A stretch of 61,463 nt of DNA, filler included, from Dugesia japonica (GCA_001938525.1; 5 parts of 5 records of this genome joined end to end with filler, not necessarily neighbours in it); one strand, 5' to 3'. Numbered from the whole stretch's first letter, positions 27,119 through 50,495 are shown. The notes: generated from the letters alone by a model not told the origin. Made by a program: numbers and translations.

Positions 27119-27725
27119 TTTTCAAGGTCACTGATACAGTTTAAGCAATTCTGATTGGTGAGAAATTTGAAGGTCGAATTTTCAAGGTCAAACAGATACA
27201 GTATCCTTGATTCTGATTGGTCGAAATATTTTCAAGGTCAAATTGATATAGTATCCTGTGTTCTGATTAGTTGATGTGTTTCAAGGTCAAAGTGATACAA
27301 TATATTTTGATCTGATTGGTTGGAGCATGTCAAGATCTATGTGATATAGTATTCTTTGATCTGATTTGATAGAGCATTACAAGGTCAAAGTAATACAGTA
27401 TCCTTTAATCTGATTGGTCAAAGCTTCTCAAGGTTAAAGGGATAAAATGTCCTATGATTTGATTTGATTAAGGGTTTCAAGGTCAAAGTGATACAGTACT
27501 CTTTGATCTGATTTTTAATAGAGCATTACAAGGTCAAAGTGCTATAATATCCTTTGATCTGATTGATCAAAGCTACTGAAGGCAAAGTCGTATAGTATCC
27601 TATGATTTTATTGGATGAAGTGTTTCAAAGTCAAATTTATACAGTATCCTTTGATCCGATTGGTAGAAGCATTTCAAGGTCAAAGTGATATAGTATCCTG
27701 CGTTCTGATTAGTCGAAGTGTTTTA
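27119..27725. repeat. ~49-bp tandem repeat, about 12 copies (TTTCAAGGTCAAAGTGATACAGTATCCTTTGATCTGATTGGT...)
   Basis: The CAAGGTCA core or variants recur at ~27123, 27183, 27233, 27282, 27331, 27380, 27429, 27478, 27529, 27578, 27626 and 27675. Confidence 0.9.
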
Positions 27726-28299
27726 AGTGTTAGTTCCTCAGGCAGACTTAATATTTGAATTTCCTCCGCAGACTTAATATTAATAAAAAATTTTGTTTTA
27801 ATGTTTTAATTTTATTTTTTGTTTTAATTTTTCATTTTTTTGTCTTTGTTTCAACAAGCAGATAGGAAATTAAAAAGTAAGATAGGATTGACTCATGAAC
27901 CTGTATCTTAAAAAATCTCCTTCCCTATAGAAATCGCGATTAAAGATAAAGTATGTAGATAGTAGCTCTCTAGATCACCCCTCTCCCTACCCCTAGACAA
28001 AGAACCTTTAGAATAAAGAGCGATGAGTCATAGGTATGACTCATCGATTACTACAACAAAGACAATGATTTATCGATGACTAGAACGAAGACAATAAGTC
28101 ATCGTTTTTATATATTATGAGTCATCGTTTTTCTTAAACTTTTTTCAAAAGCAGTGATTAAGTATCCTCGATTCTGATTGGTCAGTGATCCAGTATCATT
28201 GATTCTGATTGGTTGAAAATTTCCAAAGTTTTTGTGATGCCTCATTGTTTTATAGATCACAACTGCAACTATAACAAAGAGCATGAGTCTTACTTTTGT

Positions 28300-29612: not shown

Positions 29613-29859
29613 ATCAAAAAACCTAATAGAGCTTCATACACAGTAAACTAATTGAGTATTATACACAGTAACCCAATGGATATTATATACACAATAAACC
29701 ATATAAAGTCATTAAATTCATACAATAAATCAAAAAGGTTCTTATAATACACACATTAAGATCTATAAAATCATATATTACACACAATTAACCCAATATA
29801 GTGATGTAATACACACATAATATACTCTATATATTCATATAATAATCTGTGACTGTATT

Positions 29860-32300
29860 TTATATTTTGCTGACCTCTTGTTTCCGACAGTGGTCCACAA
29901 ACATCTGTAAATAACAGTTCAAAAATTTCGGCTGGCTGCGTCTTTTTCGTTTCTTTCTTCGTTTTTGTTGTCCACACTTTAGCTTTCTAGCATGTTATAC
30001 AGCTTTAGACAATCTCTTGTACTTTGCTCTACAAATCTTTCGCGTTATATTTATGTTTTATATACGCTGCAACCGTTTCTGCTCCAGCATGACACAAAAG
30101 ATGGCGTATCCTCATTATAACTTTTTCTACTTTATCATCAGAAATACTTGTTCTTTCATCATTTTCTCCGAAAACACCTTGTTTTTCTTGAATATCTACT
30201 GTATTTAACATCCTTGTTTTTAATTTTCCACTTTTGGGATTTTCATGTGACATTAGAAATTGTTCACATCTATTGCCTTTACTCCTTGACAACATATCTG
30301 CATTTGTATAAAGCGATACTTTTCTTTATTCCAATTTTATATCTAAACTGCTCAAATAATAATTCCAGGTTTGAAACTTTGGNGTAATCGGCTTCTTGGT
30401 ATGTAGCATAAAAATGATGGCTTTAAGGTCTGTTCTGAAGATAAATCTCTTTCTATACAAGTAATGTTTGAAATGAATACAAAAGTAGTAAATTTCGAGC
30501 AATCTTTCCGTGTAGTAGAATATCCTTTATCATGACTCGTCATTGCATGTGACTCATATGCAATTACTCTTTCTTGTCCATTGTTGTCCATTTGAGATAG
30601 TACTGCTCCAATCGTATCGAAACTCGCATCTTTGTCCAAAATAAATCTTCTATTTATATCTAGAAAACATAATATTGGAGACACCATTAGTGCTTCTTTC
30701 ATTCCATTAAAAACGTCTTCTAATTCGTTCGCCCATTCAATTTTCTTGTTACTTGGCCCACTACACAGTTGTTCCAGCAATCAAGGTTATTTCGAATAAT
30801 CTTTAAAAAACATCGATAATAATTGCAAATTCATAAAGGCTTCTTATGTTCTTAACGCATTTTGGTTTACCAAAGTTCTTAATTGCTTCTATTTTAGTTG
30901 GATCAGTTTTGACATCTTCTTTACTGATAACGCGTCCCAGAAATTCGATCTCCTTTTTCATGAATTGACATTTCTCCGGATTAACTCGAATACCCACCTT
31001 CTTAATTTCTGTTAATATTTTACTGATTATTTCAAAGTGTTGCCACTTTGTTTCGGTAAATATGAGAATATCGTCTAAATAAACCATTGCTCCTTTTTTT
31101 CGACTACTTTATTCATAATTTCCTGGAACGTACATGGCGCTGCTGCAATTCTAAAAAGTATTCTATTGAAACAAAATTGCCATTTCTTGGTCGAAAAAGC
31201 CGTCTTTTCTTGAAAATCTTCACTGAGTTCCACTTGGTGTTATGCATTGTTCAAGTCTATTGAGCTAAAATACTGGGTACCTTCCAAAGCATCTAGCATT
31301 TTATCTGCATTTTGCATAGAAAAAGCTTATCTTTCTGTTACTCCATTGAGCTATCTAAAGTCTAAGCATAATCTTATATCCTTTTTTTCCTTTTTTCAAA
31401 CACAGATTAATGGCGTATTCCATTGCGAATTACACTTCTGGATGATAGCAGTATCATATAGATTCTTGATGACCTCTTTAATCTTTTTCTCTAGATTCAT
31501 TGGCTGGCGATATGGTTTAATGTTGATTGGACGTTCTTTAGTGATTATTCGATGCTCTGTTAAGTCTGTACATTCAATGTCCCATTTATCCGCCATAAAT
31601 ACATCCTCATTATTCTGAATAATCGCAGTCAATGTATGATCTTTGTTAATTTTTAGAATCTCTATTCCATGTCTCAATCGTTCACCCGTCTGTATTTGCC
31701 TTCCAAATTTTGCCTCGATATTACAAACAAATTTTTCTCGATAATTATTGATGTCTACTCTGCATGATTTTTGAAGATGATATCCAATGGTATTCTGAAA
31801 TTCCACTCCAACAATTAGATCTGGTATTAATTTCTCTACTATTACAAATGTTACTTGCTTGCACATCTCTTAAAATATAACTTTTACACGTATCTTTCAA
31901 AGTGTTTCCAATGAGGTATGTTTCGCGCAATGCAATCGTTCCTCGCTTTTCTCTAACTTTGTTTCTCCAAGTCTATTAAATCCTTTCATGCTCATCACGT
32001 TTACTCTTGCTCCAGTATCCAAAGAACAATCAAACTGATCACCGCTGATCATCACTAAAATGCTAGGTGTTCCTTGCATTTTATCATACAAAATTTCTAC
32101 ATTCTATTTCTCTTCAATTATTCCTATCACTTCTGCTTTGTTAACTTTAGCATCATTAAAACTTTATCTTTTTAGGAATCTGTAAATCTTTTTCTCCCAC
32201 TTTACTCGTTTCATCCCATTTCTCGTCCTTTTGAGGATATTCAAAACAGTAAACATTGATATGGCGTTTCCTTTTTTGGATAAGAGTGTACATTGTTCAA
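29860..32300 (-). mobile_element. Decayed Ty3/gypsy pol (protease, RT, RNase H, integrase N-terminus)
   Basis: LDTGARVNVM (protease); HRIITKERPINIKPYRQP and VYLDDILIF (RT); FILDKDASFDTIGAVLSQ (RNase H); HLLCHAG and ELLFTDVCGPL (integrase). Confidence 0.95.
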
Positions 32301-32664
32301 GAGTGTAAATCTGCCCGCTAAATTCAATTGGTTGAGTTAATCTTTTGATTGACTTGAAAAATTAGATTAAGATAAATAAAAGCAATGAACACAATATGTA
32401 ATTCAAACAAGTAAATGAATTGAATGTATAGGTTAAATGAATGTATCGGGTTCATTGAATGTACTAGGTTTATTGACAGTATAGTGTTAATGAATGTGTT
32501 GAGTTTAATGATTTATATTGGTATGATATATAAATATGTTGACAAATTTTCCATTATGATATTAAACAATTGATAAAAGATTTGACTTATACAAACGAAT
32601 AACAAATTTTCAAAATTTAAAAAGATTATATTTATTGCAAACAAGACATATTTAAGATTTTAAN

Positions 32665-32763
32665 NNNNNNNNNNNNNNNNNNNNNNNNNNNNNNNNNNNN
32701 NNNNNNNTTAATTAATTAANNNNNNNNNNNNNNNNNNNNNNNNNNNNNNNNNNNNNNNNNNNN
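32665..32763. other. Artificial contig spacer N-TTAATTAATTAA-N
   Basis: Same 12-mer in Ns. Confidence 0.95.
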
Positions 32764-32952
32764 TACCGCATTAGGTGATATCAATTGTTTTTGCAGCCAC
32801 ACTTACGTTCTCTACATGGTTAATAATATTGCTCCGACTAGGTCATAATAGTCTAAAGTTGGTACTGTGGTTATTACTATTGCGAGTAGTCTTAGCACTA
32901 CTAATAATTTTAAGATGGTTGTTAACATATTTTTTGTTATTATTCTCATTTC

Positions 32953-32953
<1 letters not shown>

Positions 32954-33018
<65 letters not shown>

Positions 33019-33170
33019 NNNNNNNNNNNNNNNNNNNNNNNNNNNNNNNNNNNNNNNNNNNNNNNNNNNNNNNNNNNNNNNNNNNNNNNNNNNNNNNNNN
33101 NNNNNNNNNNNNNNNNNNNNNNNNNNNNNNNNNNNNNNNNNNNNNNNNNNNNNNNNNNNNNNNNNNNNNN
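32954..33170. repeat. (ATT)n microsatellite, partly gapped
   Basis: Direct inspection. Confidence 0.95.
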
Positions 33171-33515
33171 TGATTATGATCATATTCGCACTTAATCCCG
33201 TTGTCAATAATTAGAATCATTGACATGAATACTATTTCCGGGTGGATGACATCATTTAATAATTTGGTCAACGGAGTATGGAAGTTTAGGACGACGTGCT
33301 GGAAATTACTTTACTTATTTTCGATAATAGATTTAATGATTACCCGTTTAAGCATTAGTTTTTGAACATTTATGATCAAAAGCCTCACTACTATGAACTG
33401 CCAGTATCGACATTTTGTCAAAAAGGTCTTCTTTGTAGATGTATTTTTATTCATACCCATAATAATCTTTTTACGCTAAACGTACTTTCCAAAATTAATC
33501 CTATTATTTAGTAAT

Positions 33516-33702
33516 ATGCCAGGAGAAAAGCGTAATCATTTACGTCTAATTCTCAAAGCCCGAAGATCAGTGCGGCTGAATCAATTTATTGGATATCTCC
33601 TTTTTCCTGAATTATTGGAGAACTCTGATGAGACATATTTTAAGCTGTTTCCAGGAAGTGTTTTCTATAGAATTCGATGTTGATGTAGATCGTGACTCTT
33701 AA
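33516..33702 (+). pseudogene. ORF-A of copy L (~61 aa, one frameshift)
   Basis: MPGEKRNHLRLILKARRSVRLNQFIGYLLFPELLENSDETY/SCFQEVFSIEFDVDVDRDS aligns with the ORF at 39784-39966. Confidence 0.7.
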
Positions 33703-33868
33703 GTCGGAATAATTTCATATTATTGATATTTACTAAATAAAATCCTTGTCCTTTATTTGCTGTTAAGATTTACTTCTTATAATTGCTGTTTTTACAAATT
33801 TTACTTTAGAATTTATTAAACGCTCTGTTTAGATTTTACGTTAATTCTTATTTAGTGACTCAATATCG

Positions 33869-34247
33869 TTGAAGTTTAGTACTAGACCAGCTTACCAGCC
33901 GTATGGTGTTTAAGAGGTTCACTAACCCCTGCAATAGGGATGCAGGAGTATTGATGGATCGTTTCAATCTGCCGAATTGGGATGCGAACGTCGAAAGACG
34001 AGCCGATGCAGCAAACTGACAACTTTAATACAACTTGACAGGCCCCGATCAGAATGTCTCACTCATTCCTCCTTTTCCTTCATCACCTACACGAAAAGAT
34101 TTAGAAGATTATTTCGGTTTACAGATTTTCAGCATCATGTTTGCACCTCGTGAATAATTTTCTCCAGTACTCGAACTTTGTTTCTTCCGTGTTTATCGTC
34201 GATTAAACGACCCTGATCGTTTCGTTGCTACTCTTATTGTTATATGA
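33869..34247 (+). pseudogene. ORF-B of copy L (in-frame stops)
   Basis: LDQLTSRMVFKRFTNPCNRDAGVLMDRFNLP...YNLTGPDQ aligns with LDTHSGQTAFKRYQNPYNRDASVLADRSNVP...YSWCGPER of 39125-39541. Confidence 0.75.
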
Positions 34248-34249
34248 CA

Positions 34250-35700
34250 TAAAATAAATGTGGCATTATCTAAATATAGTAAAAATTGTCCAATTGCGAT
34301 TGCATGGTTTGATATAAAGGATGCTTTTGGTAGTGTTCCACACTTTTACTTATTTGCATTGCTACAATATATTGGGGTTGAAATGATTTTATTAACATCC
34401 TAGAACTCCTATTCTCTGATACATTCTCATTTTATACTTCAAACAGGGCTGCTCATTATTTATAATCCTATTTAATTTGGCAATCAATCCAGTTCTCCAA
34501 TCAATTTCTGCATCCAACACAAAACCTTTTATGATAGGTTCATCAAAAATTCAGACTCTTGTATATGCGGATTATTTGGCACTCGTTGCAACTAATACTG
34601 AAGATCTTTATAAAATAATAAATATAGCAATAGAAACTCCAAGAATCATTGGATTTGAATTTCGTCCAGATAAACGCGCTTATCCTCAACTACCTCAAAC
34701 CAACTTCACCAGCGAATTCTCTATAAATGATAAGAAAATTAAAAAATTAGCTACAAAATAATTTTATCAATATCTTGGCGTTCCGGTCAGAGATAGAAAT
34801 GACCAAAGTCCTCATGAGACGAAACAACAAGTCATTGATGATTTAACAAAAATTGCGGATTCAGACTTACTAGGATGGCAGAAGCTAAAGGCATACAAAG
34901 TATTCCTACATTTTAGACTAACATTTGCATTCCAAACGCGCGAAATCAAAATAAGCGCTCTTAGCAATCCTCAGAATAATCCAAATGTCAGTAACAACAA
35001 TACCAGTAAAGTTCATTTCTAACTTAGACATATATTAAATCTTCCGAAACGATCTGAAATTCTATACTTCTACAATTCAACCGAAAATGGAGGAGCTGCT
35101 TGAGTCGATCTGTTGGATGAATATCAAATTCAATGTGTTGTGAAATATTTTAAATTACTTACCTCAAGATGCATGTACACAAACAAAAACAATATAGACT
35201 CCTTGTGTCTCGCAGCAAGTTCATGAATAAACAAACTAAACCCATCTCTAAATGAATGTCTCGAATAGGATAAATGGGGAAAAAGCATTGAAAAACTCAA
35301 ATGCAAAGAAAATGCACTTTCAGCAAATAAGAACTGCAATAAATTTCTTCAAAAGGTTTCATGATACAGATATATCGTTTAAAGTACTTAATAAAGAAAT
35401 AGTCCTTTATATGACAAACAAGACAAGAGGAACCTATGTTATTACTCATACCTCTCGTAAAGAAATTTCAAATATTATTCACAACGTACTCTTTGATTCA
35501 TACTCTGAAAAATGGAAAAAAAGCAAAGTAAGCAACTTGATATTCTCAGCTATTCAAATGAGCCATATTGTTAATAAAATGATTTTCAAAAGTGACCTCA
35601 ATGAATTTCCGTGGAATTTCATTCACAGTGCACGAACAAACTCCCTATCGATACGTGGTAGATCCTTTTATAACTTCCAATATTGAAGAATAGTATTTGA
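34250..35700 (+). mobile_element. Decayed early-branching non-LTR retrotransposon RT (R2/NeSL/R4-like)
   Basis: IAWFDIKDAFGSVPH, LVYADYLAL (YADD box), FYQYLGVPV, LTGWQKLKAYKVFL, ENGGAA and HSARTNSL. The LxPWQK-type motif is typical of restriction-like-endonuclease clades. Confidence 0.85.
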
Positions 35701-36678
35701 AGAATTGAAGAAACATGTGTGGGTTCCATGTAGATCCAAAAACAAGACTGTTAGTTTATTCAAATTTGTTATATTTAATAAATTTTATTATTAGAATTTT
35801 AATTCTTTGGTTACTACTCTAATTGTTGTATGGCATATATCAGTTTTTCTCCTAAATAAAATAATACCAAATTTGAAATCATACGAGTTATGTACACAGA
35901 GAAAATTGAGTACAAAAAGTCAAAATTTGAGATTTTTCACCATAAAACCCTATTTATTTCATCGAGTATTGACTTTGGCGATTTTAGGTTAACATATTTC
36001 GAATCAGCGTAAATTTCTCTATCTAATAGATACTTTCTTAACTTATTTGAAAAGGAAAAAATTTTCAAAAAATTTTTATTTCTGATAAATGATCGCCGTA
36101 AAATTCTCAACAGTTTGGTATACAAATCTTTGGAATCTGAGATATAGAACATATTTTTTCAAAATTTTAGACTGTTCACCAGATTCACATAAAAATTTCA
36201 TTTAAAAAATTTTAAATTTTCATATTATTTAAACAACATGAACGGTTTGCCCGGATTCCTTTAAAACAATCCGATAAAAATTCTTTAAAAACTTTTAAAC
36301 AAATTAGACTGTTATCATGAATTTCCTTAAAAATGTTATTTCCTTTTTAAAAATGTTATCCCCTTTTTAAATTTCTTTTAAAAATTTATCCCCGTTTTAA
36401 AAGGGGGGAGGGGGGCCTTTTTAGGGATAAAATCAAGAGGCGATATGCGCCACTGTCTATCTTCCTTGTTGCTACCTGGATTTAGTAACTATGTTGGGGA
36501 ATTTCATTATTCCTTATGTGGAACAATTTTTTGTTTCATTTAAAAGCCTTCGGTTTAGATTTTAGCAATGCCGTTAAAATACTTATACTCTTTCCTTAGT
36601 GAGTTTGACCCGGAAACAGTCTGTGGCTCCCAATAAAAAGTGACTTAAAAAAACAAGTTACTTAAAAAGGACTTAAAA

Positions 36679-36966
36679 ATGTCTTGGGAGCCTTACAAAT
36701 TTTCTAAGCGAAAATGGAAGGCCGAGATCAATACTGAAAAAGCCAAGTCAAGTTTATATCGAAGAAAATGTAGTGAGTATAAAGCGGAATCAGAGGCATC
36801 CCGTGAGCAGGAGCGTATTTGGAAACGCCAGCTCGAATCATTCGCTGACGTAATCCGGTCCCTCCATGACCGTGAGATTAAACTGGTAACTGACCTACTA
36901 GAATTTAGGAAGAATATTCCGATAGAACCATTAATGATTAACAAGGCAACTCAAACACGAAATTAA
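36679..36966 (+). CDS. ORF-C of copy L: 95-aa coiled-coil protein ending in KATQT
   Basis: Intact ORF; homologous to the frameshifted ORF at 38621-38913. Confidence 0.7.
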   Translation: MSWEPYKFSKRKWKAEINTEKAKSSLYRRKCSEYKAESEASREQERIWKRQLESFADVIRSLHDREIKLVTDLLEFRKNIPIEPLMINKATQTRN

Positions 36967-37073
36967 TGTATTCTTTGGCTTAAATAAATTGTTTTGTTAA
37001 CTCTCTTGTTAATTCGATTAGTTCGCTTTATATATTTCGTACCTGATTTTCTGATTGAAATTCTTGTATTTAG

Positions 37074-37424
37074 GGCCAAGAGTTGGACTACCAAATTCTC
37101 TGCGCATGTGTCACAAGTTGTTGACCAAATTCATCATCGAACGCCACTAAAATATGCAAACGTTTGCTGTTACGGTTCCTTTCCCAAAAGAATCGCCTTA
37201 TAAAAAAACTTGAATTAGTAAACAAGAAGCAATTAGCGATTGTCAACCGGACAAACTTGCAGCTAACTAATAAGATCGCCTTTCTTAAACAATATATTAC
37301 CGATCTGGCTTCACACCTCGAGTTGGAGACCTGGTCACAATAGAATAATGGCGACGACGAGGCCGCGTTCAATTTCAAAGACAACGCGCCAATCGAATGG
37401 CTCGATCCAGGAGCTTTCTATTAA
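37074..37424 (+). pseudogene. ORF-D of copy L (coiled coil, disrupted)
   Basis: LPNSLRMCHKLLTKFIIERH...RLIKKLE...KIAFLKQYITDLASHL...NNGDDEAAFNFKDNAPIEWLDPG. Confidence 0.7.
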
Positions 37425-37625
37425 ATGTAGAAAAATAAATCTTACTTAATGTACGAGTTGTCTTCCTTTTAAATCTATTATTAATTAAGAGGAAATTTTA
37501 ACCCGCATTCAAGGTGTACAGTGAAAGCTAAAATGAGGGACATTAGGTTAAATTCTTCGTGGGGTCCACTGAGGGCTGTCTTTTCCCCCAGCCATATTTT
37601 TCTATTCCCAACTCAGATGGGACCC

Positions 37626-37627
<2 letters not shown>

Positions 37628-37695
<68 letters not shown>

Positions 37696-37745
37696 NNNNN
37701 NNNNNNNNNNNNNNNNNNNNNNNNNNNNNNNNNNNNNNNNNNNNN

Positions 37746-37795
<50 letters not shown>
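37628..37795. repeat. (AAT)n microsatellite between the two element ends, with a 50-N gap
   Basis: Direct inspection. Confidence 0.95.
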
Positions 37796-37797
<2 letters not shown>

Positions 37798-38039
37798 TTG
37801 GGGTTCTAACTGAGTTGGGGGAAAGAAAGCGTGGCTGGGGAAATACAGCCCTCAGGGAACCTTTTCAAGAATTTAAATCCAATGCCCCTTAGTTGGATAT
37901 TCAATGCAGAGCGGTTGACCTTCAATCTTTATGGGAGGTTCACACTCGTACACCTTTAATTTTGGTTCATTAATTTCCCTTATAGACATAGATAAAAAAT
38001 TAGACAAAAGTTTTCAAAAACATCTATTAACATTACAAC

Positions 38040-38416
38040 TTATAGGTCTTCCATTACACCGGGATCTAACCACTGATTCGGGCCAGTCTCCCAAAAGTCA
38101 AACGTGGCTATGTCGTCACTATTATTCAATTGTACCTAAGCAGGGTTTCCCATTTGGCTTGACAGGTCAGCTATATACTGTTTTAAGAAATCTATCTTTC
38201 GTTGTAATATTTGTTTGTTTTGTGCTTCGAGAGCCATGGTTTGGGCAGCCAAATCATTCTGTTTTTTAATCACTTAATCTAATTTCTTTTTTAGTCGGTC
38301 TCGTTGGGTGAAATGTCTTAGAAGGGTCCGTTCGGTCTTATTCTTTAAATGGCGTTCTAACAACAAGCGACGCATAATCCGGTGACACCTCCGTAAACTT
38401 GTTGGAAATACAATTC
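38040..38416 (-). pseudogene. ORF-D of copy R (two in-frame stops)
   Basis: FPTSLRRCHRIMRRLLLERH...RLKKKLD*...KIDFLKQYIADLSSQM...NNSDDIATFDFWETGPNQWLDPG. Confidence 0.7.
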
Positions 38417-38620
38417 NNNNNNNNNNNNNNNNNNNNNNNNNNNNNNNNNNNNNNNNNNNNNNNNNNGGAAATACAATTCGTGGCACTAAATAATTAAGCA
38501 TTAACAATAGGGAAGAAATAATGAATATTATCGATATTGAGCTTATCTAATCAAAATTTAGGTGTTACATGCTAAGACAAAGACTACTACATACAAATTT
38601 TTATTCGCAGAACAGAAAGT

Positions 38621-38913
38621 TTAGTCACGTGGGGTGGATTTTGTCTGTGTGCTCTTATCAACCATGAGAGGTTCGAGGTACGATTTTTCTCTAAGGTGCA
38701 AGATATCCTTGACCAGTTTATTTTCACGGTCATGGCTGGACCAGCTGATCTCGTCGAACGACTCTACCTGCGATTTCTTTCTTGGTCGTGCGCAGCTTCC
38801 ATTTCTTTGCGTACGGTAACACATTTATTCCTATAACGCTTCACTTTTGCGTTGGCAGTGGATATCTCAGCTTCGAATCGCCGTTTCGCCAGTCGATATA
38901 ACTCCCAGGACAT
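38621..38913 (-). pseudogene. ORF-C of copy R (one frameshift), ending in DKSTQT
   Basis: MSWELYRLAKRRFEAEISTANAK...HDQER / QVESFDEISWSSHDRENKLVKDILHLREKSYLEPLMVDKSTQT. Confidence 0.75.
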
Positions 38914-39124
38914 TTCGGTGTCCTCGCTGGAGTCTCTCATCTGCTTATTAGGGGCCGATGAACGGTTTAATGATGAATGCACTATAACATAAATATAATA
39001 AAATAATGGAATCTAAATAAGACTGTCTATGGTTAAAAAAACAAAAGCAGTATGGGGTCTTAACCAATCAAACAATAAAAGGAAAAAAAATAATTCCTAA
39101 CTAAACATTTATTTTTTGGCCAAG

Positions 39125-39541
39125 TTACACTAACACATCTGGGATTTCCTCCTCGGCGTTTTCGTTGTTATTACTAGACATACCATTGCGGGCACTCCAT
39201 AAATAGTTCTGAACGAACGATGTTAGTTGAGTTGCTGAGGGCAGGCTACTAGTAGTGATGCCTACTAAAAAAGGTCCGTCATGCCACATGCGTTCAACCT
39301 GTGGTGTTCCTAGATCTCTCTCAAAAGAAAGCGGTGCCGGGGGAAAAGCAACTCGGTCTCTTTCAGGGCCACACCAGCTATAATAGGCACCTCTTTCAGT
39401 CGCATCCCATTGCCGATCTTCTATAATTTGTTCAGAAGGGACATTGGAGCGATCTGCTAGCACACTGGCGTCACGATTGTAGGGATTTTGATACCGTTTG
39501 AACGCGGTTTGGCCTGAGTGGGTGTCAAGGCTTACTTCCAT
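39125..39541 (-). CDS. ORF-B of copy R: 138-aa unknown protein
   Basis: Intact GC-rich ORF with a decayed homolog at 33869-34247. Confidence 0.7.
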   Translation of the reverse strand: MEVSLDTHSGQTAFKRYQNPYNRDASVLADRSNVPSEQIIEDRQWDATERGAYYSWCGPERDRVAFPPAPLSFERDLGTPQVERMWHDGPFLVGITTSSLPSATQLTSFVQNYLWSARNGMSSNNNENAEEEIPDVLV

Positions 39542-39783
39542 GTGAAGTTGGTCCTAGAATAGTAATTAGGAAGGGTTTAATTTAAACATTAAAAAACAAA
39601 AAAAATAATATGCGGTCTTGATTTGATATGAACTATTCACAAGTAAGAACAATATTTGGATTTTATTTCATGAAATTATTATTAAATTAACACAACATGT
39701 AAATATTTAATTATGAATTGGTTGAATCATAAACATGTAACGTCACCATCTACTTCAGTCGATTAAAGTCCTAGTGCGCTTTA

Positions 39784-39966
39784 TCACTCCTTATCCAAAT
39801 CTACTTGATTCTGTAGTGGGAACATTTCGCCGAAACACCGGAGATCTGTTTCGTCGGGATGTTCGATTACGCCGTGTGATAGAATGTGTGATAACAGCTG
39901 TCTTCTCCGAGATTTGCGTCTTTCAATTCGAATTAGTTTTAATACTTTCGATAAAGGGTCGGTCAT
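39784..39966 (-). CDS. ORF-A of copy R: 60-aa protein with basic N-terminus and acidic C-terminus
   Basis: Intact ORF with a homolog at 33516-33702. Confidence 0.65.
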   Translation of the reverse strand: MTDPLSKVLKLIRIERRKSRRRQLLSHILSHGVIEHPDETDLRCFGEMFPLQNQVDLDKE

Positions 39967-40168
39967 ACTACTTGATTATCTAACACAAAAAAATATCCTT
40001 TATTTAACCATTGAAAATTATAGAAAAATGTAATAATCTGTAGAGTTTAATTCTTATCGAATTTAGATAGCTCCAGTGTCCTTCCCCAAAAAACAAAAAT
40101 TGGCGAAATGAGTTTGAATTGAGAAACGAAAGTAAAACTGAAAACTACAAGTGACATGGCGATCTTCG

Positions 40169-40680
40169 TCACCCCACTATTTCTCTTAAATTTGAGATAT
40201 TAACGTTTCTGCAAACTAGTTTATAATATAAAATGAAGCATTTTCTCTGTAAATATAACAAATCTCTTACGGCAATCATTCGGCCTTCGTGAGAATAATA
40301 TTTAATAAAACTGCTGTAACTGTTTTTGTTAAAATCAACGGGGTATTCTGCCATATCTTTGATAACATCATCAATATCAAAATATATATCAAAATAGATA
40401 TAACTTTCAATAAATTATTATACCCCGTTGGATTTATACCAGATTTTATCTTAATAAATTTATGCGCATGGCTAGTTATACTGTTCATAGTTTTCCTTAT
40501 CAACTTTATAGAACGATTGAGACAGAAATTTTAAAAGATCTGATACCTTTTGGCGTGCATCAGAGATTTCCTGTAATTATTTATTCACCACCTTTCAAAT
40601 CGGAATATTTTGTTTCGCAATCTCATAACAAAAATTTAATCCCGTTTTATAACAAGTTGGCCTGGTTTAAATAATGCCAT
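40169..40680 (-). pseudogene. ORF-Z of copy R (frameshifted)
   Basis: IKIKSGINPTGYNN / YIFDIDDVIKD / YYKL resembles IMIIFALNPVVNN / YYFRVDDII / YYEL at 33171-33410. Similarity is weaker than for ORFs A-D. Confidence 0.4.
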
Positions 40681-41861
40681 CTTAAAACCATAACCACAAA
40701 AAAAATTTTTAAACAATATTATTTGAAATAGGGTAATTTATGCTTCCCGTGACAACGCTTTCAAGGTTGCCAAACTGGTTAGGTATCAATTTGACTCGTA
40801 TTGTTGCGATCTGGTGATTGCCGTGTTTCGTGTGTGATGGTGTCGCGGCATGCATGTATCGAAACTGAGTCAGTATGAGGTGTGTGTAAGACTAGTGCTG
40901 ATGAAGTTATGTTTACTGTCAATTGATTCCAGGTGTTCCAGAAACTACTGATGATCAGATAGTTCAGTCATTACGTGAATTTAGATGCGGGTCAAAGCAA
41001 GGGCTATCAATTGTGATTTTTGTTTATAAAAAAGATGGATATGCATATCATGATTCATGTTATAAATCCACAAGAGAATTGACAGTATATCTAGCAGCAC
41101 TTAGTGTACTTTCTCTTATTTAATGTTTTCTAAAATCAATTTCAAACTTTCGATAAGCCGAATCAAATTTTATTAAATTACAACTAAATTTTTTTTTCTT
41201 TTAAAATCAATTTAAAATTGTTGATAAACCGAATCAAATTTTATTGATTAAATGATTACGAAACTTTTCTTTTTAAACCCAAAAAATCCTTTATAAACTG
41301 AGTCAAACTTTATTTATTAAATTACTATTAAACCTTTATTTTTAAATCAATTTAAAACTTTTTATAAACTGAATCCAACTTTATTTATTAAATTACTATT
41401 ATTATTTTCATGAAATAACAAACATGATGGACAACAAAATCCTTACTCGATTATTAATTAGGCTGGTTCTGCAACGGATTAACTTTTTCGACACGGGAGT
41501 AGATTTCAGGCAACTGGCTAATATTTTCTGATGAAAATTTGTCTTCAGAGTAGTCGAGCTAATTTCTTCTCTAATTCTAATAATGACTCCGATTAACTAA
41601 CTTATCAGTTATCTCGATCTTACCAATTCAAACCTTTAGATTGAATATTCGATCCTACTTGCAACGTTTTCTAATACGATTTCCTTTATCAAGTTATTCC
41701 ACGTAAGTCACTTTATGGCAATGTTGTACATATGGAAAAAATTTTTGTAGTTAGTTTTCTCACTAAATTCAGGGGTCCTTTTATAGTATTTTCTGCACAC
41801 CCCAACTTCTTCCAGATTCGTTAGTTATTTTTAGATCGACATTTTAGACTTCCTATTGGAT

Positions 41862-41961
41862 NNNNNNNNNNNNNNNNNNNNNNNNNNNNNNNNNNNNNNN
41901 NNNNNTTAATTAATTAANNNNNNNNNNNNNNNNNNNNNNNNNNNNNNNNNNNNNNNNNNNN
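41862..41961. other. Artificial contig spacer N-TTAATTAATTAA-N
   Basis: Same 12-mer in Ns. Confidence 0.95.
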
Positions 41962-42770: not shown

Positions 42771-43054
42771 GTAGACCCTAATTCTTTACCATAGGCCATT
42801 TTTCTATTATTACAATGTTCTCAAGAACTTATAATCGGTTTCAAATTACACATAAATTAATAAATTATGAAAGGTACAATTAGTATTTTTATTTCATCTT
42901 AACTAGAAACTAATTTTTAGTTATAATTTTAGTTAAGAAAAATTATTTTTGAATTGTTGCATTAAGACTTAAATAATCGTCAATAAAATTATATTTAAAG
43001 TATTATTCTCAATACAATAAAATAATGAAATATAGATCCGAAAATTCCAAATAC

Positions 43055-44630
43055 CTATAAATTGAATCGCTTCATCGTAATAAGCACGCATATCTTGCTT
43101 ATTACAATCTGTTGCTGAAAGACGCTTGTAAATAAATAGATCCTCGCGATAGGAAGGCACATTAGTTGTCACATTCAAAATGTGAGTGATTTTTTTCTCT
43201 TGTAAAACTTCTACATCATTCGAATCCATTTCATTTCCTATATAAAAAATATATAAATCAAATTACCGCCAACTAAAAATAAAAATGACGTAGTTACTAA
43301 AAATAGAAACTAATGAAAAATTAACAGATCAAATTACATTTTCAATTAAATGTCGGTATTAACTCAATAGATTAAGGTGAAACATATTTTTACAGTAAAA
43401 AAAATCAATATTTCGACTAAAACAAAATTATAACGTCACAAAAATGAATGATTTCACGAAAAATATAAACTTGAATTATATAATAATCCACATAATTTCT
43501 CAATCTATATTTAAAATTAGATGGTTTAATTGATTATTACAATTGATCTATTAGAATTAATTTATTATTACAAAAAAAACTTGAATTATGAAGTTTCCTT
43601 AATTAAGAATAAAGTCAAATAATTAAAACTTATGTCACGTACAAAAAAACTAATTTCATTTATTTAGAATTCATATTTAAATTTTAAAATTACCCAAAAA
43701 TAAATATGGCAAAATTTCCGATATTGTAGCATTTAGAACATCTGTGGACCGATTAGATTCATTTGTTGGGCTATAATGATATTGATCAATTTTTTCTTCA
43801 GGAATGGTAGATTCAATTAAACCTTTAGGAAAATAATTGATATATTCTTCATAACCACCTAGAATAAATTTGATTAATATCTATCACTTAATTTTATAGT
43901 CATTTAAAGAAAGTTAGAGTAAATACAATTTGTAAATACTTAGCTGATTTGCAGAAATTCGAAATTTGAACTGACAGAATTTACGTTCAATGTCAGTTGA
44001 AATTACAAATCAGTTTTACAACTTTTAATTTTAATATTAGAAGATAAAACAATATTAAATGTGTTACTTAAATAAATTATTACCTGTTACAAAATATACA
44101 CTTTCAAAATCTTTCCGTAAATATTCTATAAAATCCATTAAATGGGAGGTTTTTTCACCTCTTTGATTATACAACACGATTGTTTCAAAATCATATCTTG
44201 ATTGACTGAATTTATCCCAACTTTTCTTAGCTTTCATCATCATTATTCTTGTTGTGCAATTAAAATGCTCAGCACCAATAATATGGCCGTTTTTAAAGGT
44301 TCTAACATCTCGTGTATCAATCAAACAAATTGTGTTTTTGGATTTCAACTTACTATCAAGCTCTGTTACTGATATTTCATCAAAATTCTTTCTAATTTGA
44401 ATTTTATCAAAATTATATGAAGTTGCGTCCATTACATTATTTACATATAACTTTTTTTGAGGGGCATAATCAATGTCTTTGATTTTAATAGCACAATCCG
44501 ATTCAATAGTATCCATGGATTGCAAAGAATTAATTTTTGTAGTTGACTGGAATGTTGGTTTCTTGAATTTATCATTCTTTATAATTACTGGCTTTGATAT
44601 AGGCCTTTTAGACACAATAACACCATTCAT
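43055..44630 (-). CDS. Dual-specificity MAPK phosphatase (DUSP10/MKP5/puckered-like), first three coding exons; 3' part not in this contig
   Basis: Exon 44630-44084 encodes a rhodanese domain (LIDTRDVRTFKNGHIIGAEHFNC). Exon 43858-43694 gives GGYEEY...ISEILPYLFLG. Exon 43237-43055 gives GNEMDSND...ILNVTTNVP...YKRLSATDCNKQDMRAYYDEAIQFI. All introns are phase-1 GT-AG. Confidence 0.9.
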
Positions 44631-45254
44631 TGTAACAAAACTATAACTAATTAAATGCTGTAATTGACTATATATGAAATTTAGAAAATAAAATTAGAAA
44701 TACGTAATGGCTAAATATAAACTTATCCTGATTGGTTTATTAAAAAGTTCAGACGAGACCTAGATACTAAGATGTGAGAAAAACAAATCAATAAATAATT
44801 TTTTAAATAACTAAATTAAATTCGATAATTTTTTAAAGCAAGGTAAATGTAAATTATAATTTTAAATATTAAATTATTTTTGAATGTTTATAGTCTGTAC
44901 TGATAATTAAATTTGTATGCCATGTGCAATACAATACTAAATTTCAGAATTTGTTTACTGGCTTAAGATTTCATCGCTGAAAAAACAATAAAAATTAATA
45001 TTTAAATGATATTTTTGAACATCCTCTTTTCTTATTCAGCATATTTATATTTAAATAACTACATTATTTCCTATAATTTTTTTTCATTAACTATAGAATT
45101 TATATATATATATATATATATAAATTCCATAACTAGAAATTTTAATTGTTTCAAAAAATATTCTTTAACAAATTATCTGTAAATTATAAAAATTGGAGTT
45201 ACTTATTTAATTCATTAAAATAAAAACTTCCATCAAAATTTTTTTTAGTTTTTC

Positions 45255-45405: not shown

Positions 45406-45929
45406 AATTTGAGAATCAGCAGAATCAAAAACACACGTTCAACACAACATCAAGTAACACGAACAGCCTATCATCAAACAATAATAAGATTACTATAAAT
45501 AACAACACAACATTAACATTGTGAGGAAAATAAAAGTTAAAGAAAATTTTAGTTGTGTAAATATTTAAATTTTTGTAAAGGCAGATTTCTTTAATAGCAA
45601 TAAAAAATAAAATTTTGATTGGTGTTTGATTAAAGTAAATTTGTACGCGAAATTTTGTACAGTAAAAAGATTAGAACNAATATTTTAATACTTGTAAGCT
45701 TATTTTGTATTTATATATTAAAAATTTAGTATTTGCCATTTTATAATTTTTAATTTTGTATCCAATTCTTAATTGGTAACATAATTTGCTATTTTAATTG
45801 CCATTGTAAAATTTTAGGTAACGTAGATAGTTAAAGAATTTAGGATAATAATTGTTCATTTAATATATTTTATAAACCAATTTTAATGATTAATAAAAAT
45901 GAAATTTATTCCGAGAAACTCATATTAAT

Positions 45930-48660
45930 GTGATTATGAGGTTGAGTTGTTTTAATAAGTTACGAGAACTATATTTAGAAATAAGCAATGAAAGATTACG
46001 ATGTGCAAACGTTAGTACATTTGAAATTGTTCGGAAAGTTAGAACTAGAGGGACAATTGATGAAGTTTGCAAAAAGGTTACTTTCTTAGTTTCAGGAATA
46101 GTGACACCAGATTTGACTGGAGGAATAGATATGTAGAAGACTTTTGAATATCAGCTTGTGTGAAAAGTAGACAGTAAAACTGATGTAAAAGTTGAAAATT
46201 AAATTTGTTATATTGAAGTAAAATTTGGGAGACAAACTAAAGAGAGAGCGATTGACAAGAACCCAAAACAGTCTAAAGCTTAAAAACGATAAAAAGTTTT
46301 TGGAAACAATAAAGACGTTTTCATTGCAAATAAATCGGATAAAAAGACGTACATATCTGACAAAACACAAAATAATCACAAGTGGTGAACCAATTAACGC
46401 AAAATCGTACAGGCAACCTATGAACTTAAATGGTAAAATTGTAGAAACTATCCAAAACCTTTTCGAGAATAATAATATCCGGAAATACAACTCTACATGG
46501 AATATCCCATTGATCTCTGTTTAGAAACAAGAAAAGAAGGATATAAGAACATGTTTCGATTTCAGACTTTTGAATGATGTAATAAAGGCCTTCTTGATGT
46601 CTAATGTCGATGAAACGTTGGATAAGTTGGATTGAGCAAAATATTTCAATTCAATAGATTTATCAAATGCGTACTATTAGATAGAGCTCGAAGAAGAATC
46701 TGAAGAAAAAACGGCGTTTTCAACGAAACACGGGCAATATGGTTTTAATAGAATGCCAATTTACATCGCTTCAGCACCGAGTACATTTCAGGAGATGATG
46801 ACAAAAGTGGGAGGCAGAATTAATGGAGCCAGTGTAAATCTTGATAACATTCGATATTTATGAACAATAAAGATCAATACTATGAAGTAATTGACAGAAT
46901 ATTGACGGAAATAATAAAGACCGGTTTAAGAATTAATTCGGAAAAGTGTCAGTTTCTTCAAGGCAAAATAAAATTTCCTGGACACATAATCAGCAGGGAT
47001 GGTGCTAAAACTTATCTGTCTAGAATATAAGCAATACGAATATTTGTAAAACCTAACTGCGTGAAGAAGTTACGAAGTTTCTTAGAAATATGTAATTACT
47101 ACCGGAAGTTTTTAGAAAACTATGCAAAAAATCGAAGATCTTAGAACAGTTGTGTAGTGGACCAAGTATTAAGAAACTATAATAGACAAATAAATTAAAG
47201 GATACTTGCCTAAGTCTGAAAAAAGCTTTAATGGCTGCGTCAATATTGTGTTTTCCAAATATGATCAGAGAATTTTTATTGGATACGGACATTAGTTTCA
47301 ATACTATTGGAGAAGCATTATCAAAGAACGATAAAGAAGAAAGAGAAAGGGTTGTTGCATATGAATCACAATAATGTAAATAGTTAAGGAAATGCAGTTG
47401 TATTAATATAATTTTTATAAAATTAAATCACTAAACGTGAATGGAATTGGTATCATGACAAAGTTGAGAATAAAAACAAACAAGTGTCAAAGTAAAATAA
47501 AGATGTCAAAATTTTAAAGAGACTTAAATCGGATAAATTATAACAAAACCACAAATCTTTCTTAAATGACGAGAAGTCATTCTCATGGATGATTTTGTGA
47601 ATATGTATTATAAACCGAATTGGAGAGACCAAACCTTAAAGAAATAATGAAACAATGTATCCAGTTAGTTCAGTAGAGATTATAGACAAATGTTATTAAC
47701 AATTTGAGTTATTATACCAGTACTTGACTGTGGGATTGAAAATTAAGAAGTTAGTGTGCGAGCAATGAGAGATAAGTGTGACCAACTCATTCCTATTGAA
47801 TCTTTGAATTTGTAATTTTTATTCTTGATAACATCTTATTTGATAAAATTTTTTTATTGGTTACTATGTGAAGAGTAAATTGTGCATGCGTGTGCAATAC
47901 TATTTAAATAATTGTAAATAATCATAAAATTTGGTTAAACGTACTGAAACCCAATTGTAGAGCAATAAAGTCATTATTGAGTTAATCAATTCTGCTTGAT
48001 ATGAGTCATAATTTTTTAGATTTTAGAAAAGATTATATGCCTTAGACGAACCTTTACCTGAGCGTGGAGCAGATTTAATTTAAAGTTAAAATAAATTTTG
48101 TTATTAAACAAGTTTAAGTGTTGGAAACCTCAACACTGTTTACTATTTCTGCATGCATTTCAGACATTACTTGTATGGTAGAAAATTTACTCTTAACAAA
48201 GAAGAACCCTATCACATCACAATTCCAAACATGGATTAATTACCTTAGTAGTTTAGACATTATATTAGAATGTAGAAAAGGAATTCAACATGGTAATGCA
48301 GATATGTTTTCTAGAACAAGATGTGAGGTATCTGTACTTGAAAATGTCAAGAAAAGAAAGATTAAAATAAGAGTGCTAAACACAATCAAAAGGGAAAAGG
48401 AAAAGCAATTAAATACTTCAGAAGAGAAAGATTTATTCAAGAAAAAAAATTTCGAATGACAAAATATGTGAAACAATAGAAGAAATTTACAATCATGCAT
48501 GAGTTGAAAAGGTGTAGGAATATATGAGAGACAAATACATTTCGAAGAATTTGTAAAGCCAAATACAGAAGATAGTTCGTAGCTGTGAAATATGCCAAAA
48601 AATCAAAGTAGTGATGACAACAACTAAAGTGAAGACAAAGAGATTAGAGGCTACCATAAT
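45930..48660 (+). mobile_element. Second decayed Ty3/gypsy pol, same family as 29860-32300
   Basis: HKIITSGEPINAKSYRQPMNL, KTAFST, LEQLCSGPS, VVAYESH, HFRHYLYGRKF and KNPITSQFQTWINYLSSLD are shared with the first copy. Confidence 0.9.
47375..48135 (+). mobile_element. Insertion in the gypsy RNase H region, probably a solo LTR (TG...CAACA)
   Basis: Gypsy coding similarity stops near 47370 and resumes near 48140. The insert begins TGTAA and ends CTCAACA. No clear target-site duplication. Confidence 0.5.
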
Positions 48661-49529
48661 AACATCTACACAATTATGCTCAATTTTATTACGTGAAATT
48701 GCATATTGTACCTGTTGTGTATAATATTAACTTGTGTTCTAATTTTTTTAAAAATATATATGTATATATTAATTATCATTTTCATACATAAGACACATTT
48801 TTAATGACTTAAGCATGCTAAAAATTATTGTTTAATTTTTTTAAAAAAGGTGACGAACAGACAAAGTGACAAAGTTACTTAAAGTGACAAAGTTTTTTAA
48901 TTGTTTGTGTCAACAGTTACATAGTGATAATGCAAATAAAGAACATAAAACATTTTAACATGGTANNNNNNNNNNNNNNNNNNNNNNNNNNNNNNNNNNN
49001 NNNNNNNNNNNNNNNTATATGAGAGACAAATACATTTCGAAGAATTTGTAAAGCCAAATACAGAAGATAGTTCGTAGCTGTGAAATATGACAAAAAATCA
49101 AAGTAGTGACGACAACAACTAAAGTGAAGACAAAGAGATTAGAGGCTACCATAATAACATCTTCACAATTATACTCATTTTTATTAAGTGAAATTGCATA
49201 TTGTACCTGTTGTGTATAATATTGACTTGTGTTCTAATTTTTTTAAAAATATGTATGTATATATTAATTATCATTTTCATACATAAGACACATTTTTAAT
49301 GACTTAAACATGCTAAAAATTATTGTTTAATTTTTTTAAAAAAGGTGACGAACAGACAAAGTGACAATGTTACAAACTAAGTAAAGCAAACTTAGAATTT
49401 ATTTTTCACATGAATTTGTTTTTGGCGGTTTTTTAATTGTTTGTGTCAACAGTTACATAGTGATAATGCAAATAAAGAACATAAAACATTTTAACATGGT
49501 ACTAAATTTTACCCTATATTTAAAATCAA

Positions 49530-50394: not shown

Positions 50395-50495
50395 ANNNNN
50401 NNNNNNNNNNNNNNNNNNNNNNNNNNNNNNNNNNNNNNNTTAATTAATTAANNNNNNNNNNNNNNNNNNNNNNNNNNNNNNNNNNNNNNNNNNNN
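50395..50495. other. Artificial contig spacer N-TTAATTAATTAA-N
   Basis: Same 12-mer in Ns. Confidence 0.95.

Follow-up and report, generated by a model that had tools for sequence, protein, structure and literature searches.

The window analysed here, a 61,463-nucleotide stretch of Dugesia japonica DNA (GCA_001938525.1), is AT-rich and contains intron-split genes. It is interrupted by four identical N44-TTAATTAATTAA-N44 spacers (19303-19402, 32664-32763, 41862-41961 and 50396-50495) that are read as joins of concatenated scaffolds, and features lying across them are not neighbours. The scaffold of interest spans the 9.1 kb between two such joins (32764-41861) and carries two tail-to-tail copies of one unit, L on the plus strand and R on the minus strand, each composed of four small ORFs, A-B-C-D, which are matched pairwise by tblastn. 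ORF-A comprises 55 aa in copy L (33516-33683, plus strand), where it contains ENSDETY, and 60 aa in copy R (39784-39966, minus strand), where EHPDETDLRC..MFPL represents the string EHxDETDxxC..MxPL. ORF-B is open over 142 aa in copy R (39125-39553, minus strand) and survives in copy L as a remnant with internal stops (33873-34094, plus strand; tblastn E of 1e-10 against R). ORF-D is broken in both copies, at 37055-37421 (plus strand) in L and at 38052-38490 (minus strand) in R, the latter containing an N gap. The ORF-D remnant of copy R starts with TG at 38490 on the minus strand, immediately after an acceptor-like TTTAG, and an upstream, in-frame candidate ATG of copy R ORF-C at 38940 (minus strand) is preceded by an acceptor-like CAG; together these are consistent with spliced expression of the cassette, and ORF-C may be the product of a spliced or sub-genomic RNA. 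None of the ORFs A to D has a Pfam match above the cut-off, and Rfam gave no matches over 32764-41861.

Copy L differs from copy R in harbouring a decayed RT fragment (34190-35690, plus strand) that is open over 144 aa at 35252-35686 and has a PF00078 match of E 5e-6 and 26.8 bits, below the cut-off of 29.6. Its motifs, WFDIKDAFGSVPH, YADY and YQYLGV, suggest that it is non-LTR-like. Because only L has this fragment, in the interval from ORF-B to ORF-C, it is read as a secondary, later insertion. The possibility that the cassette is the 3' end of a non-LTR retrotransposon was rejected: in L the RT piece comes after ORF-A and ORF-B, copy R has the A-B-C-D order without it, and the AAT tract is opposite in sense relative to L and R, contrary to a strand-specific repeat tail. 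This (AAT)n microsatellite (37628-37795, including a 50-N gap at 37696-37745) forms the tail-to-tail junction of the two copies and is bordered by their terminal blocks at 37531-37627 (L, plus strand) and 37796-37894 (R, minus strand), which are 72% identical. The block of copy R ends in CCCCAACA on the gene strand (TGTTGGGG on the plus strand) at 37796, which is LTR-like, and the L end is degenerate; one element end was found and the opposite ends were not. The carrier probably represents an LTR, with genes inside it, of a Ty3/gypsy retrotransposon of the Burro type. It shares with the planarian Burro/GYPSM1 giant Ty3/gypsy elements a very high number of copies, the presence of accessory ORFs, an AT-rich animal genome as host and an LTR-like CA end (PMC6431247). 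Burro elements carry BIR and BCL2-like domains; their description in section 7 of that paper mentions neither small genes within LTRs nor an LC8 motif (PMC6431247). No gag, pol or env linked to the cassette is present on the 9.1-kb scaffold, whose flanks are microsatellite and gap.

Several further repeats and genes were noted in the window. Upstream of ORF-C in L, a short tandem repeat at 36345-36402, apparently another abundant repeat, reaches a contig depth of up to 31,836 and is covered by oligo-dT reads. The upstream part of copy R (40709-41410) combines a tandem repeat of 70 nt with a number of short ORFs for which L yielded no counterpart. Two decayed Ty3/gypsy pol regions lie on scaffolds other than that of the cassette, at 29770-32100 (minus strand) and 45900-48730 (plus strand), where protease, RT, RNase H and an integrase zinc finger can be recognised by eye. 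A host gene at 42969-44693 (minus strand) encodes a rhodanese domain (PF00581, E 8e-8), has exons like those of a phosphatase and resembles a MAP kinase phosphatase. A 130-aa coiled-coil ORF at 14187-14579 (minus strand) adjoins another AAT tract, matches no family above the cut-off and may belong, as a small gene, to some other element, and a unit of roughly 49 nt is repeated eleven times in tandem at 27168-27728.

ORF-C of copy L (36679-36966, plus strand) is intact and encodes a protein of 95 aa with a predicted helix at residues 10-78 and a loose tail at 79-95. Residues 10-30 form a basic stretch with nine K/R and two E, so that nucleic-acid binding is suggested. The C-terminus reads EPLMINKATQTRN before the stop, i.e. 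INKATQTRN, and contains the LC8-type octamer I-N-K-A-T-Q-T-R (positions -5 to +2; 36937-36960, plus strand). Copy R of ORF-C (38621-38913, minus strand) is frameshifted near 38770-38776, upstream of its motif, through either decay or an error of assembly, which leaves the motif out of frame with the ATG at 38913; its octamer, V-D-K-S-T-Q-T-K (positions -5 to +2), lies at 38639-38662 on the minus strand. A preliminary description had placed KATQT at 36943-36957 (plus strand) in copy L and DKSTQT at 38642-38659 in copy R. Re-reading located the former at the same place and the latter at 38659-38642 on the minus strand. The end that had been given for copy R ORF-C was corrected, as the frame extends past TKS to ...DKSTQTKSTPRD and reads EPLMVDKSTQTKSTPRD, terminating in ...TKSTPRD with the stop at 38623-38621.

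The quality of the motif can be judged against the preferences of known LC8 clients. LC8 binders share a TQT anchor, a large positive residue at -3, a polar residue at -4, a non-bulky residue at -2 and the absence of proline before the anchor, and P, D or E is preferred, not required, at +2 (PMC6607443). A further account favours apolar V/M/I/L at -5, K/R at -3 and a small residue at -2, and reports a Kd of 0.07 uM for binding of the peptide Ac-VDKSTQTD to LC8 and of <0.01 uM for dimeric peptide forms (PMC3078936, Table 1). Both ORF-C copies possess the TQT anchor with K at -3, neither octamer has a proline before the anchor, and the differences between L and R at -5 (I/V), -4 (N/D) and -2 (A/S) all fall within LC8-favoured classes. 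The sole misfit is at +2, which is basic in both (arginine in L, lysine in R) where P/D/E is preferred. VDKSTQTK of copy R equals the 70-nM peptide Ac-VDKSTQTD at seven of eight positions. It had also been stated beforehand that DKSTQT occurs in rabies virus phosphoprotein and in Bim, and the literature bears this out: the former contains SSEDKSTQTTG (PMC11750543) and the latter DKSTQTP (PMC3419265). The hexamer of copy R is thus identical to both, with the differences that the motif here is C-terminal and that it is borne by a repeat of the genome instead of by an RNA virus or a host gene. The motif closely matches an LC8 docking site, and its sequence makes recruitment of host LC8, as practised by several viruses, likely.

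How often such a string would arise by accident depends on the definition used. The pattern [^P].[KR][^P]TQT has two matches in the six frames of the window, both of them the ORF-C tails, among 10 TQT triplets in total. Shuffled windows contain a mean of 0.73 matches and at least two matches in 50 of 250 shuffles, and two bare KxTQT matches per window are therefore not rare. The fuller pattern [VI][DSN][KR]xTQT has a mean of 0.012 in shuffled windows (one match in 3/250, two in 0/250), although this somewhat overstates its rarity as the pattern was defined post hoc from published residue classes. When the residues of ORF-C itself were shuffled in 400,000 trials, the basic motif appeared anywhere in 0.09% and within the tail in 0.008%. 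Copies L and R are homologous, so the motif counts as one origin and one retention.

The two copies share 47 identical residues over 93 aligned codons, with a pS of 0.91, which is saturated, and a pN of 0.33. Since synonymous sites are saturated at this lower pN, ORF-C is concluded to have been under past purifying selection, and hence a genuine protein-coding gene during a long divergence of the copies. The full-length comparison consists of two sequences, of which copy R is frameshifted. The tail at residues 83-93 is identical at 8/11 positions (pS 0.85, pN 0.20) and is similarly conserved to the helix core (13/22 identical, pN 0.22), and the linker at 71-82 is identical at only 3/12. The question raised beforehand, whether TQT is more conserved than its flanks, is answered positively for the linker alone: the tail exceeds the linker (Fisher p=0.04, for blocks picked post hoc), but it does not differ significantly from the remaining ORF-C (39/82 identical; p=0.20), and EPLM, which lies outside the LC8 octamer, is retained equally well as TQT between L and R. 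Moreover, 98% of column shuffles contain some 11-residue window with eight identities. Of the three codons for TQT, those of T(-1) and Q(0) show synonymous differences between the copies, which argues that the constraint acts on the protein; RNA-level constraint was rejected on these grounds as the cause of TQT retention.

These figures bear on the improbable alternative that the motif is a chance string of one sub-lineage, carried along by the general 51% conservation of the ORF while most of the family lacks it. Such an origin would be in keeping with the roughly 0.7 bare KxTQT motifs expected per window, with the probability of 0.065 that four given residues are retained at 51% identity, and with the alignment of the family majority at the core and not over the tail. 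It sits poorly with the expectation of 0.012 per window for the full pattern and with the placement of the match, in frame and in a loose tail in both copies. The motif is also old, given the saturation of synonymous change between the two copies. The equal retention of EPLM leads to another unlikely explanation, in which EPLM[IV][ND]K[AS]TQT is kept for a different partner or a modification, such as an ATM/ATR-type TQ phosphosite, and resembles an LC8 site by coincidence. Kinases of the PIKK group have S/T-Q as their consensus, and the basic residue at +2 of both copies would also suit such an explanation; the fit of positions -5, -4, -3, -2 and +1 to LC8 preferences would in turn be left unexplained. 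LC8 docking is the reading that is followed below.

The position of the motif in the predicted structure is consistent with LC8 docking. Single-sequence AlphaFold2 prediction of copy L yields one helix at residues 10-78 with a mean pLDDT of 89, followed by a non-helical segment at 79-95 whose pLDDT in this single-sequence prediction is 68 at residues 81-90 and 50 at 91-95. Over residues 46-80, nine of the ten a/d positions are hydrophobic in the best of seven registers, and together with the predicted helix this upholds the coiled coil that had been proposed to precede the motif. A two-copy prediction of L gives a parallel, in-register dimer with a score of 0.36, compared with 0.00 for the best control and a mark of 0.32 that is passed by 21/30 solved homodimers and 0/23 monomers from microbes and by 17/29 solved homodimers and 0/30 monomers from eukaryotes. 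Contact agreement between runs is at least 89%, pLDDT is at least 75, and the residues named as interface lie within 6-77, with none from the tail. The model supports pairing of ORF-C, with a score barely over the mark that perhaps reflects likeness to solved coiled coils.

ORF-C resembles bZIP proteins (PF00170/PF07716) in placing a basic stretch ahead of a hydrophobic heptad zipper, and the nearest named Atlas clusters are bZIP (0.89-0.90), a weak likeness based on 125-131 shared features at a recognition of 1866. Membership of the bZIP family was rejected, as no Pfam bZIP match was obtained at E up to 0.1, and unlike in bZIP the basic part of ORF-C lies within the predicted dimer interface. 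The closer parallels are found among LC8 clients such as EML3 and myosin 5a, which have a TQT beside a coiled coil, K at -3, a polar -4 and an apolar -5 (PMC3078936, PMC6607443). As in LC8 clients, the ORF-C motif is situated in a predicted loose segment, eight residues past the predicted dimerising helix, and the overall size of ORF-C is about that of the EML3 8-94 fragment. It differs from EML3 and myosin 5a in being a stand-alone 95-aa orphan of a mobile element with a basic +2 residue, and in that its binding is only predicted. Another likeness is to the Gag protein of prototype foamy virus, a retroelement protein that engages LC8, as ORF-C putatively does; Gag is a structural protein using its coiled coil CC3 (PMC3705263), whereas ORF-C would be an accessory microprotein in its own right, equipped with a linear motif of canonical form.

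ORF-C belongs to a large family, and the tail is seen in a small part of it. The most conserved core of ORF-C, around HDRExKL (36840-36884, plus strand), has a summed contig depth of 22,675 and 27,602 in two runs, about 3,900-4,600 times the single-copy depth. Core depths of this order against a depth of about 6 point to thousands of relatives, the summed depth being a rough measure and no copy number. The bulk of the family aligns over the core and not over the tail: summed depth exceeds 20,000 at the core and falls to about 44 at the motif, compared with about 6 at single-copy places, and the motif could be compared in about five close relatives. Contigs were counted over the tail (36892-36975) only if at least 80% alike, which makes this check of retention partly circular. 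Six contigs of run X1 cover that interval, one being the locus itself. Four of the five non-self contigs span the whole anchor, ending at 36957, 36966, 36966 and 36969, and three of these four terminate at the stop or shortly past it. The fifth ends at 36945; its depth equals that of a contig with a one-base deletion at 36953, a deletion within the anchor that is present in one of the five close contigs. Run X4 supplies seven contigs over the tail, of which two are self, two run through the stop and three have their contig ends at 36943-45. Among the 40 letter changes listed of 263, the only two in the octamer affect the -2 codon (36946 in four contigs, 36948 in five). A contig of run X9 (depth 2.6) matches an X1 contig in both span and number of mismatches and stems from the same study, and no second species was counted.

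RNA evidence is confined to diverged copies. Reads over the motif are absent among 98 aligned reads of the oligo-dT run X18 and among 13 aligned reads of run X21, and neither run contains reads 99% alike to ORF-C. Partial reads of X18 over the ORF-C core reach a depth of 24 with the first mate on the minus strand and of 6.5 with it on the plus strand. A diverged ORF-C relative is present in RNA, probably in sense orientation.

Searches for homologues elsewhere returned little. A word-indexed protein search with copy L ORF-C gave no candidate, and a search with the L/R alignment, the second row of which was misaligned at its end, gave 0/5 among candidates of near length and 0/493 at longer lengths. 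A full HMMER search with ORF-C found one match, P0001 (E 8.6e-4), confined to query residues 39-70 and without TQT. This 244-aa protein holds two repeats of SEERE..W..NVE.N.NVL...DR..KF at residues about 77-150 that resemble ORF-C 39-70, and the likeness may be due to chance or to distant kinship. Viral contig L001 was discarded as a 22-residue chance match to ORF-C. The sole metagenome contig match was rejected because it is out of frame within a 58% GC gene. The ORF-C DNA pattern has no matches in the viral contigs. PF01221 gave 0/1 record and 0/14 controls, and two ORF-C strings had no matches in the seven supplementary files of PMC13524379, whose cells were compared to 400 characters.

On balance, it is considered fairly probable, from the sequence, the models and the analogy with known clients, that ORF-C, a gene of what is probably a Burro-like LTR, encodes a protein that would form a parallel coiled-coil dimer, engage an LC8 dimer through its pair of TQT tails and be clamped by it. 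It is proposed that ORF-C would pair via its coiled coil, placing the two TQT tails side by side, and that these would occupy both grooves of the host LC8 dimer with avidity, a bivalency deduced from known LC8 clients. LC8 would in turn clamp and stabilise the ORF-C pair. In the most speculative step, the basic N-terminal surface of the stabilised dimer might serve the element in a regulatory accessory role, with nucleic acid as one conceivable target. Occupation of both grooves also bears on the suggestion that ORF-C is a dynein cargo adaptor which moves particles or RNA of the element along microtubules. Foamy virus Gag binds LC8 via a coiled coil needed in centrosome trafficking and offers a precedent (PMC3705263), but a dimeric client takes both LC8 grooves (PMC3078936), and presumably none would then remain for the dynein intermediate chain. 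There is also no known link between ORF-C and Gag, and a role in transport is regarded as very improbable.

Rather than being stabilised by LC8, ORF-C could act as a decoy whose tail titrates LC8 from host clients such as a Bim-like regulator or a silencing complex. The motif of copy R is the DKSTQT of Bim, BIR and BCL2-like domains are found in Burro elements (PMC6431247), the PICTS/SFiNX transposon-silencing complex of Drosophila is reportedly dimerised by LC8/Cut-up, and the great abundance of the ORF-C family would suit a titrating role. Each chain has a single motif, however, no X18 or X21 read covers the motif, and the literature searched contains no paper on LC8-dependent silencing in planarians. 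LC8 is moreover abundant in cells, and Panoramix is not known outside insects. Titration is accordingly held to be quite unlikely, and clamping of the ORF-C dimer by LC8 remains the favoured reading.

The preliminary description had regarded recruitment of host LC8 by a protein of the element as a virus-like trait. Its first half gains from a good motif that has been retained in a predicted loose tail after a predicted dimer. The second half is an analogy: no viral gene was seen on the scaffold, the carrier resembles the end of a retrotransposon, and host proteins have LC8 motifs at least as typically as viruses do. LC8 clients and viral mimics of them are already well known, as is viral mimicry of host short linear motifs in general. 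The literature searched, which included few subscription papers, lists no accessory protein of a retrotransposon that carries such a motif; foamy virus Gag comes nearest. An LC8-type motif in an orphan microprotein is credible on the strength of two full copies, one of them broken.

A broader picture is plausible but held more tentatively, namely that the LTR of one of a planarian's most abundant repeat families encodes a coiled-coil microprotein of 95 residues with a near-optimal LC8 motif. This would be an accessory protein of a transposon that recruits the LC8 hub by imitating a host linear motif, to lock its own dimer or to draw LC8 away from apoptosis or silencing complexes, and solo LTRs would have spread its gene in thousands of copies. 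The small orphan genes at the ends of giant elements have no assigned function, and the LC8 motif offers a concrete and cheap test for one of them. If true, cassette microproteins would act on host hubs in the manner of the accessory proteins of complex retroviruses.
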